Source of the DNA: a virus | Taxonomy: Duplodnaviria > Heunggongvirae > Uroviricota > Caudoviricetes | DNA length: 35,546 nt | Virus record (IMG/VR): IMGVR_UViG_2778261064_000019 | Strand: one strand, 5' to 3' | Shown here: positions 2,857-11,058 of the stretch, in pieces | Numbering within the stretch: position 1 is the stretch's first letter | Layout: each line of letters begins with the position of its first letter | Program-made: the position numbers and the translations under genes | Notes under the pieces: model-generated | Seen by the model: only the letters and a program-made list of their open reading frames with translations | What the model was told of the DNA's origin: nothing | Database searches by the model: none

Positions 2857-5514
2857 TTAACGTTGAAAAACCCAACACTTCACCGTCGCCGGGCGGCGCG
2901 GTGCGGCTGGGTAACGGCGGTTAAATTCAGCGTTGATGCCGCTGTTAACCGTTCTGACTTCAATAAACTTGTGGGTACGGCTGGTTTTTAGCACTCGCTT
3001 CAAATCGCTGATCGGCGGGATCTGCTGGCGGCGCTCGGTAGCCAGTTGAATAAAGTGGTTAAGGTTAACGGCGATAAGCTGTTCATCGCGCGAGTGGTTG
3101 AGCTGTGGTTCGTCGTCGCCATCGAGGAAGTCGAAAATATCCCAGAACTCCTGCACCAGAGGATGGTCGGCGCTGATGGCCTGTTGGCGCTCCAGACTGA
3201 GGCGGATAAACATTTCTCTGGTCGCCTGTAGCTGCTCTTCCGTGACCGGAATAACCAGCGCCAGCGCGTCGAGCAGCGCCATAAGCTGGGCGTGGTTTTT
3301 AATGATGCGGATATGGCGAATATCTGGGTGGGAGTGAAGTTGCTGCTCGTATAGCGGGATCTGACGGTTAACGCACTCCAGCACGGCCTGTTCCGCCAGC
3401 GCTGCCTTCAGCATAAAGCCGGAAAGCTGTTCTACCGGCAGGCGTTCGAGCTGCTCGGCAGCGACCTTGGTCTGAGTATTCTGGCCGCTGCGGTCGGTGT
3501 ACAGGTGAATAATACGTTCCAGCACCGGGTTAGAGGCGCTAACATCGGCGTTTTGCGCAATCACAATCGCGCCCCGGAACGGCGGTTCATAGGTCTCGTT
3601 GCCGCTGTTACGCAGACCGCGAGAACGCACCGACCGCCCGTTATAGGCGGTTTTCAGCTCTTCCCAATCAAAGCCACGCTGCTTTGCCCCCTCCTGATTA
3701 CGGTCACCCTCGATCAGCACCACCGGCATATTTGCTACCTGCGCAAAGTTGCGCGCGCGGGCGGCCAGCGTTGATTTAGACGGATCGAAACCTTCATAGT
3801 CGCGTCGGCCCAACAGTTTTCAGAGGAACTCTATCAGCGTGGTTTTACCGCTGCCGGGTTCGCCAACGATTTCCAGAAATGGAAAGCTCTTGTGCTTGTC
3901 GCGGATCTGTTCGGCAAACATCGTCCCAAACCAGTACGCCAGCGCCACAAACCCCTTTGCGCCAAACGCCTGCCAGAGTAGCTGGGGCCACTGGCTGTCC
4001 ATCTGTTTTAAATTGTCGTTCAGCGTCAGGCTGACCGACTGGTTCAGGCTTTTAAGGCTAAGTTTGCCCATGTCGAAGAAGTCTTCTTCGTTGAGTGTGT
4101 ACAGCCGACCATCGCGAACGGCCAGATCGTTGAACACGTAAGCGCGGTATTCTTTGCTGTAGCCGATAAAATCAGTGGTCTGGACAGTTTTGATTTTGGG
4201 AAGCTGCTTGAGCAGCAACTTATCTAACTGCTGACTGGTGCCGGTGAAGATGCCGCCCTGCGCGATATGCAGCAGGCGCTTTTTGAATTCTGAGCCGCTG
4301 GAAAGTTGGGAGCCGGTGAAGGTGTTTTTTATCGGTGGAGTGTCGTCGGGGAAGTTAATGCGAAAGTAATACCAGCTTTCGTCGGTAATGGTGTTGGCCT
4401 GATAGTAGAGGGTGGTCGGGTAGCAGTTGGCTATCTCAACAACGGCGGCTGACTCCTGTAGCGCTTTATGTTTGGCTTCTTCTTCGTCCAGCTCCTCTTT
4501 GCCGTTATACATCACGTTATCAAAGGCACGCATATAACGGTCAATATCCAGCTTGAACCAGTACAGGCGGCTGTCGAACTCGAAGTGAAACTCTTTGCGT
4601 TCGGTACGCTCATGCATCAGTAATGCTTTGGCATTCGGATTGGGAGCGATCAACAGTGAACCGTAGTAACGATATTTTTTAATCAGATCCGGGTTTAGCC
4701 GATCGCGCTGGTGCAAATCGTTCCAGTCCAGCTTGGTGCGGGAATAGGGCGTTTGTGCGGCGGTGGAAAGCCAGCCGTCGTCGCGGCTGCGTTTTACCCA
4801 GCGGCGGGTGTAATTCATGCCCGCTTTGTCGTTATCCAGCGCCCAGACCAGTAAAGGACGCTTTTTATCCACGAACAGCGCGGCCAGTTGGCTTAACGCC
4901 TGCGCCGGATAGTTGTTACAGGTCATCAGGGAAACGGCGGCAATGCCGTGGTGGTGCAGGGCGATAGCGTCAAAAATGCCCTCAACCAGCCAGATCTCCT
5001 GCTGTTCTTCCAGCTTAAGCGTTGGCAATTGCCACCATAGCCCGCTGTAAGCGCCGTGAAAATTGGCTTTGCGATCGCCGAAACGCTGTGGGCGGTCAAC
5101 GATCCGCTCCCACCACACGCCGTCAGCCAGCGGGAAACGCACAGTGGCCGAGCCGAGATCGCGCCGTGCGTCATAGTAGTTCTCTTGAGCGTAACAGTTA
5201 CGGAGCAGCGAAAGGTCAAAGCCGCGCATCTCGCGCAGGTAGGCATCGGCGGCGGCCTGTGGGTTTTCCGGGGTTGGGGGATATCTGTCTGACCAGCTTT
5301 CAAATAGATCCGGGTACACCTCTTTGATATGGATTTCGGCATTGCATTTATTCAGGCGACCGCAGCGCAGTACCCACGGGCTGATGGCGTAGGTGTACAG
5401 CTCTTTTTTCTGGCAGTCCGGGCAGACGCCCTGCCGCAGCCAGTCGCCCTGTTCTTTAAAGGAAAAATCGGCTAGCAGTCGCCGCGTAATTTCCTGATGA
5501 AGTTGTGGTTGCAT
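2857..5514 (-). pseudogene. P4 alpha-like primase-helicase interrupted by an in-frame TGA (fragments 3820..5514 and 2857..3813)
   Basis: The two ORFs are in the same frame, separated by a single TGA at 3820..3822 (translation ...GEPGSGKTTLIEFL*KLLGRRDYEGF...). N-terminal Cys-rich zinc-binding motifs (CPDCQKK, CGRLNKC) and a Toprim-like segment (LVEGIFDAIALHHHG); Walker A (GEPGSGKTT) sits just before the stop, and the helicase region continues after it. Confidence 0.6.
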
Positions 5515-5602
5515 TGCCAGTACCTTTATTCAGGTAATACTTACCCGTCGCATAGACACGTTGTTTATGCGTTGTGGTTGTGAGTCTTTTATTTACTGAG
5601 CG

Positions 5603-5833
5603 TTACGCGATTTTCTGCTTTTGCAGAAATTGCCCGCGTGTGGATAGCGGTATGTGTATCTTAGGATTCGGGCAACCGCTGGGTACTACCGTTCCCATCA
5701 CGGTCTCCATCGCGATAAATGAAAACGAACAGTTAACGTTCTTGCACTGGTAATAGAGCTTACGTACCAGCGGTGACATATATTCGCTGCTGCGAATTAT
5801 CGCCTTACCGTCGCAGTGTGGGCATTTCATCAT
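5603..5833 (-). CDS. ogr: Ogr/Delta-family zinc-finger late-gene transcriptional activator
   Basis: MMKCPHCDGKAIIRSSE...YYQCKNVNCSFSF matches the Cys4 motif of P2 Ogr. Start set at ATG 5833 (AGGAG 7 nt upstream) rather than the longer ORF start at 5851. Monomer size (76 aa) is Ogr-like, not the duplicated P4 Delta. Confidence 0.85.
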   Translation of the reverse strand: MMKCPHCDGKAIIRSSEYMSPLVRKLYYQCKNVNCSFSFIAMETVMGTVVPSGCPNPKIHIPLSTRGQFLQKQKIA

Positions 5834-6156
5834 GTCCGATCTCCTTACCACTTTTAACTAACTGAAACACTAACGCTTTTCGTTAACGGACTGACGAAAT
5901 AGTGTGATGCCGTTCAAAAAAATGATTCTTGCCATGCTGGACATCGAACGGTTCTGCTCCAGCGCTAATGCTTACAGTTCCGCGATTTCAGCGGGGAGCA
6001 GACGCATTGCCACCGGTTTGTTCGACATCACCCCGCGGGGTGCTCGTGAGCGTAAGACGTTCTCATTTGTTTTCATGGTGGTATATTGTGGTTATTAACA
6101 TTACACAATCTATAATTCCCTCAATTGAGTGAATTGTCAATGGTAATTATATCCAA
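5834..6156. promoter_or_regulatory. Divergent intergenic control region between ogr (minus) and the XRE gene (plus)
   Basis: 323-bp non-coding gap between divergently transcribed genes. Contains a 14-bp perfect palindrome CACCCCGCGGGGTG (6029..6042), palindrome TCAATTGA (6121..6128), TATAAT (6111..6116) and TTGTCA (6135..6140). Promoter assignment is not resolved. Confidence 0.35.
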
Positions 6157-6495
6157 ATGAAAGAATTTGGCATCCGTTTGAAGGAAGAACGTATCCGACT
6201 TGGCCTTGATCAAGACGGCTTTGGACAACTTGGGGGCGTGAAGAAAAACGCACAAAGTAACTATGAGAATGGACTGCGCAAGCCGGACAGTGACTATCTT
6301 GCTGGCATAGCGGCAGCGGGAGTTGATGTTCTGTATGTTCTAACAGGCAACCGCACGCCTGTGGCTACGTTGTCCAGTAAAGAGAGTGTGTTGGTGGAGA
6401 ACTATCGTTCTGCTACGCCAGAACACCAGTCCACCCTTGACACGGTTAGCGCTGCGCTTGCGCAACCGGGAGTAGGGAAAGCAGCTAAGGGATAA
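6157..6495 (+). CDS. XRE-family helix-turn-helix regulator (candidate prophage repressor or cargo regulator)
   Basis: 112-aa ORF; N-terminal HTH pattern (IRLKEERIRLGLDQDGFGQLGGVKKNAQSNYENGLRKP) is typical of Cro/CI-type regulators. Divergent from the ogr-primase string, directly upstream of the AT-rich operon. Confidence 0.7.
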   Translation: MKEFGIRLKEERIRLGLDQDGFGQLGGVKKNAQSNYENGLRKPDSDYLAGIAAAGVDVLYVLTGNRTPVATLSSKESVLVENYRSATPEHQSTLDTVSAALAQPGVGKAAKG

Positions 6496-6535
6496 CGAGT
6501 AGAATGAATTTGGTTATTGTCTGTATGGAGGCAAA

Positions 6536-7108
6536 ATGAAGTTGAATAATCTGGTTGCTCTTTACAGGAACATGACAGAGCAAAAATTGGATAGGGTTAA
6601 ATTCCCATACAGACACAATAATTTACATTTTGATGTATTTTTCTTTATTGATGGAAAACCGTTTGAGCTTCTTTTCGGAGCATTAGGCGCTAATCTTTGC
6701 TTTCGTCTAAAAGTCGAGAAGGGATTCGTCATAAATCCTAATCTGGGAAGTGAGACTTATAAAGAATTATGCAAGGCGCTAGGTTTGAAATATGACCCTG
6801 CCAATCCATTTAGAACAAGTAAGTTTTTTGAAGATTTTGATGGGAAAATCCCTACATCGGTTACTGTTAAGAATAAGGCAAAATATACTGATATTGCTGT
6901 GCATGTCAGGGATGTTGAAGAAGCAGACAGAATATATTTCTGTGGATGGAAAAACAACAATGAAGAAAAGAGTCATGTTACTGAAGATAATTTAAAGAAA
7001 ACGAAAGAGTTTTTAGGGTATCAGGCTTTTCTTGTTTGTAAGGAAAAGAATATTAGCAGTAGATGGACTGATTTAGAAAATAAAGCAAAAGATTTTTATT
7101 TACCATAG
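6536..7108 (+). CDS. Hypothetical protein, AT-rich cargo operon gene 1
   Basis: 190-aa ORF with GGAGG-like RBS before the ATG. Strongly AT-biased codon usage unlike the flanking phage genes. No family recognised. Confidence 0.6.
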   Translation: MKLNNLVALYRNMTEQKLDRVKFPYRHNNLHFDVFFFIDGKPFELLFGALGANLCFRLKVEKGFVINPNLGSETYKELCKALGLKYDPANPFRTSKFFEDFDGKIPTSVTVKNKAKYTDIAVHVRDVEEADRIYFCGWKNNNEEKSHVTEDNLKKTKEFLGYQAFLVCKEKNISSRWTDLENKAKDFYLP

Positions 7109-7122
7109 GATTGTGAGGTTAT

Positions 7123-8271
7123 ATGTCTGATATTTCATTAGGGTGCGTGGTTGTTCATAGGTTGATAAAAGAGCAACATAAAGATTTCGATCACTCAAAA
7201 CCATATAGTCGCCGTGATACGGTTCTTGACCGAAATAATGAAATCGTAATTAAACTAGTGTCCAGTATAGCCGCATTGTATGGTAAAAAATCTAATAGCT
7301 CGCATTATGGTATATTTAATTTAGATGAAACACGCAGGGGGCCTTTTCCAGCGGAATTTGATAAATATCGGAATGATACATCCAAGAAGTTAGACGATGA
7401 ATTGTTTATAGGATTATCAAAAAATGTTATGCATCAGTTATATATTGAGGCAAAGGATCGACCTGCTGCATCAGGAGGATTACTTCTTTTTGCTGATTAT
7501 ATCAGTAAATCCGTGCGTTACTTTCTTATTGCAATGATTAAGCAAAAGGAAGGTATAGTTATTAGTGATAAATTAGAGCCAAAGGAGTTAGAGCATCTTG
7601 ATCTGGCAAAACTAAACCAGGCGGCACGAATAAACTATGATTTGTATGATAAATATATTTCCGCTGATGAGAATGAAAGACAGGATGTTAATTATTTAAG
7701 TTTTGTTAGTCCCAGTTCTAACCAGACAACTTCAGGGTATTTCATTACTGCCTTAGGTTGTGATAAAGGTAATACATCAACTAAAGCTACGAGTAATTTA
7801 ATTAATGAATCTTTTAACTTCTTCAGAAATCATCAAGAATTAAAGGATAATGCCCGTAAATTTAAAAATGAAATTATTGAGTATTTATTCGATTGTTCTG
7901 AAAATAACATTTCAGCTAAGCTCTCTGTTGTTAGTGAGATGGCGGCGAAGCATATGGTTAATTTAGAAGATGACATTAAAGATAAATTGTCAGAAGAATT
8001 ATATGCTCATTTGAATAGTGAAAGTATTCGTGTGCCTGTGGAATTTAGGGTAAGCAAATCAGTAGTTAAGAAAAACAGAAATATTAAATATACAAGTGAT
8101 AATGTTAATTTTGAGTTTAAATCTAGTTTACTAGGCAATACTCTTGATAATGAGATATGCTATAATAAGAAAACTGGACATTTAACTTTTACTCGGATTA
8201 CTCCTGAGAAAAAAAGTGAAATAGCTCAATTGCTTGATGAGTTAATAAAAGAAAGAAATAGCGAAAAATAA
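7123..8271 (+). CDS. YejK/NdpA-like (NA37 family) nucleoid-associated protein homologue, cargo gene 2
   Basis: 382-aa ORF, 14 bp after gene 1 with a GTGAGG RBS. Full-length pattern similarity to E. coli YejK as recalled: MSDISLGCVVVHRLIK vs MSLDINQIALHQLIK; ASGGLLLFADYISKSVRYFLIAMI vs [25 protein letters not shown]. Not verified by search. Confidence 0.6.
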   Translation: MSDISLGCVVVHRLIKEQHKDFDHSKPYSRRDTVLDRNNEIVIKLVSSIAALYGKKSNSSHYGIFNLDETRRGPFPAEFDKYRNDTSKKLDDELFIGLSKNVMHQLYIEAKDRPAASGGLLLFADYISKSVRYFLIAMIKQKEGIVISDKLEPKELEHLDLAKLNQAARINYDLYDKYISADENERQDVNYLSFVSPSSNQTTSGYFITALGCDKGNTSTKATSNLINESFNFFRNHQELKDNARKFKNEIIEYLFDCSENNISAKLSVVSEMAAKHMVNLEDDIKDKLSEELYAHLNSESIRVPVEFRVSKSVVKKNRNIKYTSDNVNFEFKSSLLGNTLDNEICYNKKTGHLTFTRITPEKKSEIAQLLDELIKERNSEK

Positions 8272-8282
8272 GGTTGCTTAAT

Positions 8283-8912
8283 ATGTCATGTTTTGAAACG
8301 GTTGTTGAGCTTTTCAGATATGTAGGGCGTCCTAAATTTGATGCTATTAATAATCGTTTTTCAGCAACTATTTCTTATGATGCTCATATATATGAACTCT
8401 TAGTTTCTTTGCAACCTCATACAGCGTGGGGAGAAATTGAAGAGATTGTCATTGATGATGTGGATATAGATGTTGATGATAGCCTTCCCGCTAAAGGAAC
8501 ATCAATAACACTGACAATCTCTATATCAACTGGAGCTAGTGAGTCATTTTTTATCGATATTAAAGATCTAATTCAAAAGTCTCCGATGTTAAATAGAGGT
8601 ATTTTAAGAAAGTCTTTTTACTTGGTTGAGGAAGATTTTTATTTTAATGAAGGAATGGTTGAGGGATTAGCAAAAATACCAGAACTATCTGTTTTAAAGA
8701 ATCTTTGTGATTTTATTTTATGTCTATCAAAAGTTGCACACTACAGCAATAGTAAAAGTGATGATGTATGCCATAAGTTAGTTTTCTTGAAAAATACTAA
8801 TGCTAAGTCATTACCTTTAATTATTGAAACTAATGTTGATTATTCACTTCTTTTAACAGGTATTAAGGATTTAAAAATCATCGAATCTTTTTCTGATGAA
8901 AAAAAGCTATAA
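8283..8912 (+). CDS. Hypothetical acidic protein, cargo gene 3
   Basis: ORF track starts at TTG 8274; the first ATG is at 8283, about 11 nt after the gene 2 stop. Contains acidic stretch EEIVIDDVDIDVDDS. No family recognised. Confidence 0.55.
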   Translation: MSCFETVVELFRYVGRPKFDAINNRFSATISYDAHIYELLVSLQPHTAWGEIEEIVIDDVDIDVDDSLPAKGTSITLTISISTGASESFFIDIKDLIQKSPMLNRGILRKSFYLVEEDFYFNEGMVEGLAKIPELSVLKNLCDFILCLSKVAHYSNSKSDDVCHKLVFLKNTNAKSLPLIIETNVDYSLLLTGIKDLKIIESFSDEKKL

Positions 8913-8956
8913 CGGATGATAATTATTTTGAGCGAAAAGGGATTTTCATTAATACG

Positions 8957-9538
8957 GTGGTCGATTTTCTTGAATCAATCGATGTAAAGAAACAGTTTCA
9001 TTTTTTATTCTGTGAGTGGGATGAATTTCTAAAACTATACCATAATAACCTCGGTGTATATCTTAGTGGTTTTTCATTTCATAAAGTAAGAAAGGAAGTG
9101 GCAGAGGCAGAAGCTAATTTAGCTGAGCGTTTTTCAAAAATAATGTCAGACATGATAGCTAAGCTTTTAGGTATTCCTGTTTCTTTGGTTGCTACTTTTG
9201 GCATGATAAAATTAAATACCCTGCCGGAAATGTTAGTGGTTTTTTTAGGTGTATTGCTCACGTCGATAATTATGTTTTTTATTGTAAGAAGTCAATACAC
9301 ACAGTTTAGGATGATTTGTGATGCTAAAGATATTATATTTTCCCCATTAGTGAAAAAATCTGTAGGTTATACAGAAGATTTGAAAAAATTAGTATGCAAT
9401 GCAAAGGATAATTTAGACAAAAATCAGGTCATGTTAAATCGTTACCTTCTTTTCTTTCAATGCTTATGCTGGATTCCGACAGCCTTAGGTGGTGGAATGA
9501 TCTTAATGGCTATTATGGTTCATTTAGGATTACTATAA
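8957..9538 (+). CDS. Predicted multi-pass membrane protein, cargo gene 4
   Basis: Hydrophobic segments IPVSLVATFGMI, MLVVFLGVLLTSIIMFFIV and YLLFFQCLCWIPTALGGGMILMAIMVHLGLL. Track start is a GTG at 8957, so the true start is uncertain. Stop codon overlaps the gpD stop convergently. Confidence 0.5.
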   Translation: MVDFLESIDVKKQFHFLFCEWDEFLKLYHNNLGVYLSGFSFHKVRKEVAEAEANLAERFSKIMSDMIAKLLGIPVSLVATFGMIKLNTLPEMLVVFLGVLLTSIIMFFIVRSQYTQFRMICDAKDIIFSPLVKKSVGYTEDLKKLVCNAKDNLDKNQVMLNRYLLFFQCLCWIPTALGGGMILMAIMVHLGLL

Positions 9539-10633
9539 ACTTAATTCCATTTCTAATGCGGTGACATAACCAGTACCGCCATCCAACGTATGCACGCACC
9601 GCGTAATCACCCACGCGGTGCCATCAATTTCCGCCTTAAACCCCTTCACCTGCAGCGGTAATTCCGGGAACAAATCGGGCCGTCCACGCGCAAGATTCAG
9701 GCTGAACGTTGCCGCGCCGCGCTGTAGCTGCTCCCACGCGCTTTTTGCCGCTCTGTAGGCGTTATTTTTGTTGGCATAGGTGTGGCGCAGCACCTTGATA
9801 TTTCCCTCTTCGCCAACCATCACGTTATCAGCATTGAATGAGGCGTCTGACGGCGGAGATTCTGTTGGTTGCGTTTGTGGACGGTTTTTCCGTGTCTTGC
9901 GCTTCATGTCAGTGGACTGCTTTTTTGCCTGCCGTGTATCCAGCCAGTAGGCCGTCACACCGGTATACGCCTCCCTGTCCGCGATGCTGAACCGGTGGCT
10001 GTCGCCGTCCTCGCGGGTAATGGTTGCGACCGGCAGCGGTTTGCCGCTGGCACTTTTACCGGAACCTGTCGGCATTAGCAGCAGAGCATCATTTTTCACG
10101 CAGGCGATAGCGCCGTGCAGTTGCGCCAGCCGGGTCAGGAAGGAGGCATCGGATTCGTTAGTCTGGTCAACGTGCTCAATGGCGATCCCAGCCAGCTCGC
10201 CGCTGACGGTTGATTCCAGCTTATGACGCGCCGCCACGGTTTGCACAATCGCGCCCAGCGTCGCATCATGGTAGCTCTGTTCCCGTTTAACGTTCAGCGA
10301 ATCGCGGAAATCGGCGCTGCGGGCGCGGAGGCTGAGTACGTCCGGTGCGCCGCTGTGCTCCAGTTCGTCCACTGTGAAGACATTCTGGTGCATCACGCCG
10401 TCACCCTTCCAGCCTAGAGAAACCGTTAGCTTTTCGCCCTTTGCCGGAAACGCCAGCAGGCCGTCGCTGTCGTCCAGTTCGAGCTGCAGTTCGTCGGCCT
10501 CAAAGCCCCGGTTGTCGGTGATACGCAGGCTGATTAAGCGGTTGTCCAGATTCCGCGTAATGTCCTTACCGTTCAGCACCACGCTGTACTCCGGCTGCGG
10601 CTGGGCGTTTAAGAGTGCGTTTAACATCGTCAT
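9533..10633 (-). CDS. D: P2 gpD-like tail protein (late control D)
   Basis: 366-aa ORF at the end of the T-U-D string, in the order and size expected for P2 D. Confidence 0.8.
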   Translation of the reverse strand: MTMLNALLNAQPQPEYSVVLNGKDITRNLDNRLISLRITDNRGFEADELQLELDDSDGLLAFPAKGEKLTVSLGWKGDGVMHQNVFTVDELEHSGAPDVLSLRARSADFRDSLNVKREQSYHDATLGAIVQTVAARHKLESTVSGELAGIAIEHVDQTNESDASFLTRLAQLHGAIACVKNDALLLMPTGSGKSASGKPLPVATITREDGDSHRFSIADREAYTGVTAYWLDTRQAKKQSTDMKRKTRKNRPQTQPTESPPSDASFNADNVMVGEEGNIKVLRHTYANKNNAYRAAKSAWEQLQRGAATFSLNLARGRPDLFPELPLQVKGFKAEIDGTAWVITRCVHTLDGGTGYVTALEMELSL

Positions 10634-11058
10634 AGTCCGTCTACCATCGTGATGATGTCGCCCAGCAAGCCACCCAGCTTCGGCGGATCGACACGTTTTA
10701 ACGCCAGCGTAAACTCAATGCGCCGGGCCGCACCGTCGCGAAAAAAGACGCTCCGGGTGACGTTCAGACTCTCAATCACAAACCAGCCATGCAGCGATCC
10801 GGTGCCTTCAATCAGCGGCCAAGCCATCCCCTGATCGGCCATCTTTCGCAGGAAAAACAGGGTAAATCGCCCGCCGGTCAGTTCCGGCAACAGCACGCCG
10901 TTTAGCGTAATGGTTTCGTCACCCACGCCGATAAACTGGCTGGCCGGACGTAGCCCCACGCGGGAACTGGCAGGATGCCGCCACGCTACGGCGTGCTGCA
11001 TATCCTGATAGGGCAGGGTTTTCAGGCTGAAGACGAACAGCCCCAGTACCATCATCAT
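10630..11058 (-). CDS. U: P2 gpU-like tail protein
   Basis: Start set at the ATG-ATG-ATG triplet ending at 11058 (MMMVLGLFVFSLK...), preceded by AAGGAGG. The longer ORF to 11166 would overlap the tape measure gene. Confidence 0.75.
   Translation of the reverse strand: MMMVLGLFVFSLKTLPYQDMQHAVAWRHPASSRVGLRPASQFIGVGDETITLNGVLLPELTGGRFTLFFLRKMADQGMAWPLIEGTGSLHGWFVIESLNVTRSVFFRDGAARRIEFTLALKRVDPPKLGGLLGDIITMVDGL

Follow-up and report, generated by a model that had tools for sequence, protein, structure and literature searches.

Introduction

DS-1 (working ID D390) is a two-gene anti-phage system reported in the DefensePredictor study (Science 2026, PMC13092281). It comprises a gene for DS-1A (WP_000355468.1), a YejK-domain protein of 391 amino acids (aa), followed by a gene for the 404-aa protein DS-1B (WP_000150292.1). 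In the Escherichia coli screen performed by its authors, the system lowered phage plating, with -log efficiency of plating (EOP) values of 7.6 for Bas1, 2.7 for Bas26, 1.7 for Bas3 and 1.7 for T3 (PMC13092281). Here, we analyze a gene pair related to DS-1 that is carried by a P2-like prophage, represented by the IMG/VR virus record IMGVR_UViG_2778261064_000019, whose entire stretch of 35,546 nucleotides (nt) is referred to as the window. The analysis centers on an open reading frame (ORF) at 8957..9538 (+), close to the phage gene gpD. We find that this ORF is the 3' remnant of a split gene, and we consider it probable that the gene belonged to a DS-1-like cassette in the ogr-gpD slot of the prophage, in which the second partner has been knocked out, or nearly so.

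P2-like prophages are also the site of a second relevant precedent. The hotspot described by Rousset et al. 2022 (gpA-gpQ, cos-proximal; old/tin locus; PMC9122126) is likewise a variable slot with alternative anti-phage cargo. The cargo in the window, however, lies elsewhere, namely between ogr and gpD rather than in the replication-portal gene interval next to cos, and neither of the terms ogr or gpD is used in the main text of PMC9122126.

A single-nucleotide deletion splits one gene into two reading frames

A sequence-only reading of the window had described the ORF at 8957..9538 as the last gene of a cargo region. The ORF indeed exists on the plus strand, starting with a GTG codon and encoding 193 aa, and it is annotated as a coding sequence (CDS) by the Prokaryotic Genome Annotation Pipeline (PGAP) in an identical E. 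coli genome. However, it is not an independent gene. The profile of PHROG 5023, a phage and prophage family of 412 positions whose members consist of one polypeptide, matches two ORFs of the window, with positions 9-198 corresponding to an upstream ORF at 8283..8912 (+; E 3.2e-14) and positions 224-397 corresponding to the ORF at 8957..9538 (E 5.6e-31). Since this single profile covers both ORFs in order, they represent one gene that is present in two frames. The upstream ORF encodes an N-terminal fragment of 209 aa when read from ATG 8283 (with TTG 8274 also open), which comprises a soluble alpha/beta domain. In E. coli strain GMF054, the same place is occupied by a single CDS of 418 aa. Over its full length, the gene in the window is distinguished from that of GMF054 only by an indel in a run of A residues and by three synonymous substitutions, with the encoded protein being identical otherwise. 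The downstream ORF accounts for residues 226-418 of the intact protein and is identical to the C-terminus of the GMF054 product.

Alignment to GMF054 places the deletion of 1 nt in a tract of seven A residues (A7) at 8899..8905 (+), which comprises eight residues (A8) in intact alleles. The upstream frame ends with the codons GAT GAA AAA AAG CTA TAA and reads A_AAA_AAG at 8900-8906, while the downstream (-1) frame is open from 8900. The ORF at 8957..9538 is the 3' remnant, comprising the C-terminal 193 codons, of a gene of ~418 aa at 8283..9538 that has been cut in two by the A8-to-A7 deletion. Counting the A residues in the compared loci revealed A7 tracts in the window, L001 and L015-L017 and A8 tracts in L003 and L008-L014.

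The gene pair is related to DS-1

The split gene is preceded by a gene at 7123..8271 (+) for an NA37/YejK-like nucleoid-associated protein of 382 aa, as identified by Pfam NA37 (E 5.1e-45, residues 10-361) and phrog_3767 (E 4e-63). As in DS-1, a gene for an NA37/YejK-like protein and a gene for a protein of ~400 aa thus form a co-directional pair with the same order and similar product sizes, and in both systems the second protein combines a soluble N-terminal region with C-terminal hydrophobic helices. The similarity extends to the sequences themselves. BLASTP aligned the NA37 protein to DS-1A with 26% identity over 214 aa (E 8e-9), and an hhalign comparison of the second protein family with DS-1B returned a probability of 96.2% (E 2e-9, 25% identity, 260 columns). 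The profile NF053869 (DS1_2 anti-phage protein) matched the ORF at 8957..9538 (E 6.8e-13, 48.5 bits), the intact protein (71.6 bits) and 8/8 aligned homologs (best E 2e-28), with relatives scoring at most 104.2 bits against a cut-off of 315. For the NA37 protein, NF053868 (DS1_1 nucleoid-associated anti-phage protein) yielded 80.8 bits against a cut-off of 330.

At the same time, there are clear differences. The identity to DS-1 is only ~25%, the second gene is frameshifted into ORFs of 209 aa and 193 aa, and a DUF6037 gene accompanies the pair in its P2-like prophage. Moreover, DS-1A starts with the sequence MDITCLECG...CDKCG, a zinc-ribbon-like CxxC...CxxC element that appears to be missing from the NA37 protein of the window, whose residue 9 aligns to residue 41 of DS-1A in the one BLASTP alignment that, together with a reading of the sequences, underlies this comparison. 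The cassette is a divergent relative of DS-1 and not DS-1 proper, and the ORF at 8957..9538 is best read as the pseudogenized remainder of a defense partner gene of a divergent, DS-1-like type.

A large protein family paired with NA37-domain proteins

When used alone as a query, the 193-aa fragment returned one partial match, and a full-length query was needed to recover the family. A profile built from eight full-length homologs matched 991 cluster representatives at E<=1e-3, including 196 at E<=1e-30, and among the 150 matches listed nearly all were single chains of 400-430 aa. In a species-representative genome set, the pattern [VTI]Y[LM]SGF[SA]FH picked out 24 loci from other genera, which include gamma- and deltaproteobacteria, a Candidatus Moraniibacteriota metagenome-assembled genome (MAG) and a MAG labelled Methanosarcina. 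In 24/24 of these loci, an NA37 gene is located directly upstream on the same strand. The partner proteins in the Methanosarcina sp. MAG (L019) and the Moraniibacteriota MAG (L022) share 33-34% identity with the E. coli protein, and a binning error is possible in these cases. NA37 is also found directly upstream in a Serratia island (L004) and in two further contigs (L006 and L007), one of which contains D5-type primase genes and is satellite- or island-like, while the other is of the lambdoid type and carries the pair between antiterminator Q-like and holin genes.

Two other genes accompany the pair in the window. One of them, at 6157..6495 (+), encodes an Xre-type helix-turn-helix (HTH) regulator (Pfam HTH_3/HTH_31) and has a backbone-like GC content of 0.50. 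It is common to prophages with different cargo and also found in L725, a prophage type discussed below. In Salinicola socius (L023), a homolog of this regulator (E 1.4e-18) is encoded at 2094-2771, directly upstream of NA37, which hints that an Xre-type regulator may sometimes travel with the pair. The other is a DUF6037 gene at 6536..7108 (+; Pfam DUF6037 E 1.7e-31), which is part of the same low-GC island. Table S10 of the DefensePredictor study includes the DUF6037 protein at the same position in GMF054, WP_024247617.1, under the label 'Predicted novel defense gene', as a candidate that was predicted but untested (PMC13092281). We considered DUF6037 as a core component of the system and rejected this idea, as the gene is absent from 24/24 other loci. 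It is probably a separate or accessory cargo outside the core pair.

Predicted architecture of the second protein

The sequence-only reading had credited the ORF with at least three hydrophobic helices. In our analysis, based on the Kyte-Doolittle (KD) and a Hessa-type hydropathy scale, three hydrophobic segments were indeed detected, and an AlphaFold2 model shows helices at all three of them. However, a transmembrane (TM) character is clear only for aa 92-110 (KD 2.9; summed dG -4.3), which is hydrophobic enough to span the membrane, whereas the segments at aa 66-84 (summed dG +3.4) and aa 175-193 (KD 1.9; summed dG +1.2) are marginal by hydropathy. The marginal segment at aa 66-84 and the strong one at aa 92-110 are separated by a 7-residue loop and form a putative TM hairpin (9152..9286, +), to which DS-1B can be aligned and at which the AlphaFold2 model of the intact protein contains helices 297-310 and 314-362. 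The last segment is part of a C-terminal hydrophobic helix (aa 165-193; 9449..9535, +), whose hydrophobicity is shared by 8/8 aligned homologs. Conservation within the family is highest in the motif NNLxxYLSGFSFHKxRKEVAxAE, which is defined by invariant columns in the alignment of the eight homologs and located just before the membrane segments (9044..9112, +). The charge distribution suggests a topology with a cytoplasmic N-terminus, the TM hairpin, ~55 residues that form a basic loop in the cytoplasm and a last helix that would place the C-terminus outside.

Distribution of the disrupted allele and other lesions

The exact 193-aa and 209-aa products are found on 377 and 355 contigs, respectively, from many assemblies, as compared with 178 for the intact 418-aa protein, and index blocks with the A7 product (744) outnumber those with the intact product (366). 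No difference was seen over 4.5 kb among the five A7 loci that were compared, and they represent one haplotype, which is separated from the A8 haplotypes by 55-60 single-nucleotide polymorphisms (SNPs). This pattern points to a single origin of the A7 allele, followed by its spread with a prophage sub-lineage, rather than to recurrent switching. Database proteins starting with MKKAITDD and MKKKAITDD fit A6 and A9 alleles, respectively, as inferred from the peptides with the DNA unread. However, the A6-type form is present on 2 contigs and the A9-type form on 1, and such near-singletons may be errors.

Other lesions affect either partner. Further disrupted alleles of the second gene carry a frameshift in a T run at 9001-9006, a frameshift near aa 119 or a nonsense mutation at R218. 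Conversely, the NA37 partner is broken while the second gene is intact in the Serratia island (L004) and in two E. coli loci (L012 and L013). In Serratia, NA37 is split into products of 233 and 105 aa (L004 6866-7999). As for the two E. coli loci (L013 5840-6989; L012 4496-6937), NA37 is split into products of 159 and 209 aa in one E. coli genome, and in the other locus it comprises 365 aa instead of 382, with IS1 located between the HTH and DUF6037 genes.

The prophage slot and its junction with gpD

The window represents a P2-like prophage at an integration site adjoining guaA in E. coli. Over region 5500-10700, strain 24A16CRGN010 matches it with 100% identity and strain GMF054 with 98.7%, and the cargo was recovered over at least 80% of the query in only 2/5426 complete E. 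coli genomes. A megablast search of the region against the phage collection gave no match, and gpD shares less than 60% identity with every phage record. The assignment of the ORF to a block of cargo, as proposed by the sequence-only reading, is borne out by the base composition: it lies in a low-GC island at ~6500-9540 (~28-35% GC) that is embedded in a prophage backbone of ~55-60% GC. The slot holding this cargo is bounded by ogr (5603-5833, -) and gpD (9533..10633, -), which encodes the tail/baseplate hub protein ('late control D'; 366 aa, with Pfam Phage_GPD matching residues 66-350 at E 3.5e-23). The cargo genes are all encoded on the plus strand and convergent with the tail genes.

A separate observation concerns the replication gene of the prophage. 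The 885-aa toprim/primase-like replication gene (2857-5514) contains an in-frame TGA at 3820-3822 (-), corresponding to codon 565, shortly after a Walker A motif with the sequence GEPGSGKT. Genome L001, which is nearly the same otherwise, reads TGG at this position, and the gene calls of L015 (AP025754.1) show the same split of the replication gene into products of 318 aa and 564 aa. The prophage copy in the window may therefore be replication-defective.

At its distal end, the cargo abuts gpD in convergent orientation and leaves no spacer, and the vicinity of the junction lacks a convincing terminator, in agreement with the initial description; over 5500-10800, terminator-like sites occurred at chance level (6 versus 5.0 +/- 1.9 expected). 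The stop codons do not overlap, as had been stated, but are adjacent, with the TAA of the cargo at 9536-9538 (+) and the TAG of gpD, read as CTA, at 9533-9535 (-). Each stop codon lies opposite the last sense codon of the other gene, so that the two CDSs overlap by 6 nt (9533-9538). This geometry is identical in every examined locus of this cargo type.

In strains L725 and CEC15, the same slot contains a different cargo (L002 4025-6111 in L725), composed of a gene for a very divergent NA37 protein (20% identity to that of the window) and a gene for a RelA/SpoT-domain protein. In L725, the latter is a 333-aa protein annotated as 'GTP pyrophosphokinase', whose gene has a 4-nt overlap with gpD. 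The two prophage types are near-identical across ogr, the HTH gene and gpD, save for the last ~17 gpD codons. This segment (9533..9586, -, including the stop codon) co-varies with the type of cargo, ending in ...GGTGYVTALEMELSL in the window and in ...NSSGYGTAVECELGLED in L725. In the window, it is AT-rich like the cargo and lies outside the Pfam GPD match. These comparisons are best explained by a cargo exchange boundary inside the gpD reading frame, in a seemingly tolerant 3' end. Because the last ~17 gpD codons differ by cargo while the codons upstream of them are identical, cargo exchange also accounts better for the tight convergent junction than the idea, put forward by the sequence-only reading, that convergent transcription could couple cargo expression inversely to late-gene expression. 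In P2, gene D is followed directly by ogr in the same orientation, and in the window the two genes share the - strand as well. Read-through from the late operon would therefore cross the cargo in antisense direction before reaching ogr, which makes such interference with cargo expression conceivable.

Discussion

Our results show that the ORF at 8957..9538 is half of a gene whose relatives are consistently encoded next to an NA37 gene, and they suggest a model for how the intact pair may work. The intact protein would consist of a cytoplasmic alpha/beta N-domain, a helical region containing the YLSGFSFHK motif and a C-terminal membrane anchor composed of the TM hairpin, the basic loop and the final hydrophobic helix. 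The NA37-like protein may sense phage DNA or a disturbance of the nucleoid and then act via its membrane-anchored partner to stop the infection, most likely by compromising the membrane (abortive infection). In the window, with the partner truncated, the system is probably inactive or nearly so. The proposal that the ORF encodes a plausible effector can therefore be retained in modified form, in that it corresponds to the membrane-anchoring part of a plausible defense partner or effector but represents a fragment and not the whole protein.

Two-part abortive infection systems, such as RexA/RexB of phage lambda, combine a sensor in the cytoplasm with a partner in the membrane. The prophage-encoded pair described here could be analogous to this type of system, as it would likewise consist of a cytoplasmic, nucleic acid-associated component and a membrane protein, although we did not find any relationship to RexA/RexB-type systems in sequence or fold.

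Several observations weigh against the interpretation as a disabled DS-1-like defense cassette. The scores obtained with the DS-1 profiles are far below the equivalog cut-offs, so that the function of DS-1 cannot simply be assumed for this clade, and the mechanism of DS-1 is itself unpublished. Two of the three hydrophobic segments are only marginal by hydropathy, and structure searches returned only generic helical bundles (CorA, ClyA, AhlB and designed proteins) and no specific effector fold. PADLOC, Pfam and PDB sequence searches with either fragment or the intact family yielded nothing, with PADLOC v2 (2023) not including this family. Finally, the A7 allele outnumbers its intact counterpart, and no further differences distinguish the five A7 loci from one another, leaving room for some residual function of the two pieces.

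Among the alternatives, a role outside of defense fares best, although we regard it as unlikely. The NA37 and membrane-protein pair could serve the mobile element itself, for instance by tethering the nucleoid to the membrane, by mediating superinfection exclusion at the stage of DNA entry or by maintaining lysogeny. Such functions would be compatible with the general DNA-binding activity of NA37/YejK proteins and gain some plausibility from the aforementioned limits of the comparison with DS-1, namely its unpublished mechanism and the scores of this clade below the DS-1 family cut-offs. However, the pair is carried as low-GC cargo at sites that are unrelated to each other (the ogr-gpD slot of the P2-like prophage, the interval between Q-like and holin genes and positions beside primase genes on two elements), as is typical of defense cargo, and the homologous DS-1 pair was protective in experiments (PMC13092281). 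Its frequent inactivation also argues against an essential function for the element.

There is a slighter chance that the A tract serves to switch the gene ON and OFF or to attenuate it, operating by -1 frameshifting, transcriptional slippage or reversible A7/A8 flipping. The A_AAA_AAG heptamer of the upstream frame is perfect and correctly phased, the 0-frame stop follows after two codons, and database entries are consistent with tract lengths of A6, A7, A8 and A9. The same heptamer occurs in the programmed -1 frameshift sites of dnaX and insertion sequence (IS) elements and would here, likewise in the right frame, join two ORFs. Moreover, if accompanied by stimulators, A_AA.A_AA.G ranks with the most efficient heptamers known from E. 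coli (PMC4066793). Without them, however, heptamers promote frameshifting at only 2.1-10x a background of 0.055% in E. coli (PMC4066793), and, in contrast to dnaX/IS-type sites, the tract in the window lacks a recognizable stimulatory structure: the downstream RNA does not fold better than shuffled sequence (z -0.08), and a Shine-Dalgarno (SD)-like element upstream was not seen on reading the sequence. Nor is the frameshift conserved in the family, whose other members are single ORFs, including sister haplotypes with an in-frame A8 tract. Because there is no stimulator and no conservation and the tract arose from an in-frame A8, A_AAA_AAG looks like a mutation and not like a programmed signal. 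Recurrent switching was not seen either, as all sampled A7 loci (n=5) share one haplotype, and the A6 and A9 forms, limited to 2 contigs and 1 contig, may be errors. Recoding would thus be a minor leak and not a programme, with -1 slippage on A7 producing at most trace amounts of the full-length protein.

Even less probable is the scenario in which translation of the 193-aa ORF starts at GTG 8957 and yields a stand-alone membrane effector, acting either on its own or as one part of a two-piece protein generated by gene fission. The fragment retains the conserved motif and all hydrophobic helices, PGAP calls it as a CDS, its allele is widespread and the five A7 loci, identical across 4.5 kb, have not accumulated further damage. 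GTG 8957 is also preceded by the SD-like sequence AAGGGA. This element, however, is weak (-5.1 kcal/mol) and, at 13 nt from the start codon, badly spaced, whereas the SD sequences of the neighboring DUF6037 and NA37 genes are strong (-9.3 and -6.3 kcal/mol) and properly spaced; GTG 8957 is merely the first start codon in frame after the frameshift. In addition, single chains of ~400-430 aa make up the great majority of the family representatives listed, and the break is located at a mutable homopolymer rather than in a domain linker with its own start signals. Given that the A7 loci form one clonal haplotype, their abundance is no proof of selection. The last alternative, an A7 tract that is a homopolymer sequencing error in a gene that is really intact, can be dismissed almost entirely and was rejected, because, although homopolymer indels are common errors and some deposited variants are singletons, the exact products are present on hundreds of contigs (377 and 355, with 744 index blocks) and linked to a distinct SNP haplotype.

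A disabled copy of a DS-1-like cassette therefore remains our preferred interpretation, and the alternative cargo of the sister prophages suggests that NA37-like proteins may pair with different effectors. In a more far-reaching scheme, which is rather unlikely to hold in its entirety, NA37/YejK-like proteins would be modular infection sensors with interchangeable effectors (a DS-1B-like membrane protein here, RelA/SpoT in sister prophages), the ogr-gpD junction would constitute an undescribed cargo-exchange hotspot with its boundary inside gpD, and the poly-A tract could provide a means of turning a costly membrane effector OFF reversibly.

The feature itself is ordinary, the type of system has already been described and the copy in the window is probably defective; the interest of the locus is modest and lies in the NA37-partner family and the ogr-gpD cargo slot. 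In terms of annotation, two 'hypothetical proteins' on hundreds of E. coli contigs can now be recognized as the halves of one gene. The matched ON (A8) and OFF (A7) alleles provide natural controls. Since either partner has repeatedly been inactivated, the system may be costly to carry. Moreover, the DS-1 pair is now tied to a large and taxonomically broad family (991 cluster representatives), and the adjacency of NA37 in all 24 scanned genomes offers comparative material on the role of YejK-like proteins in immunity.
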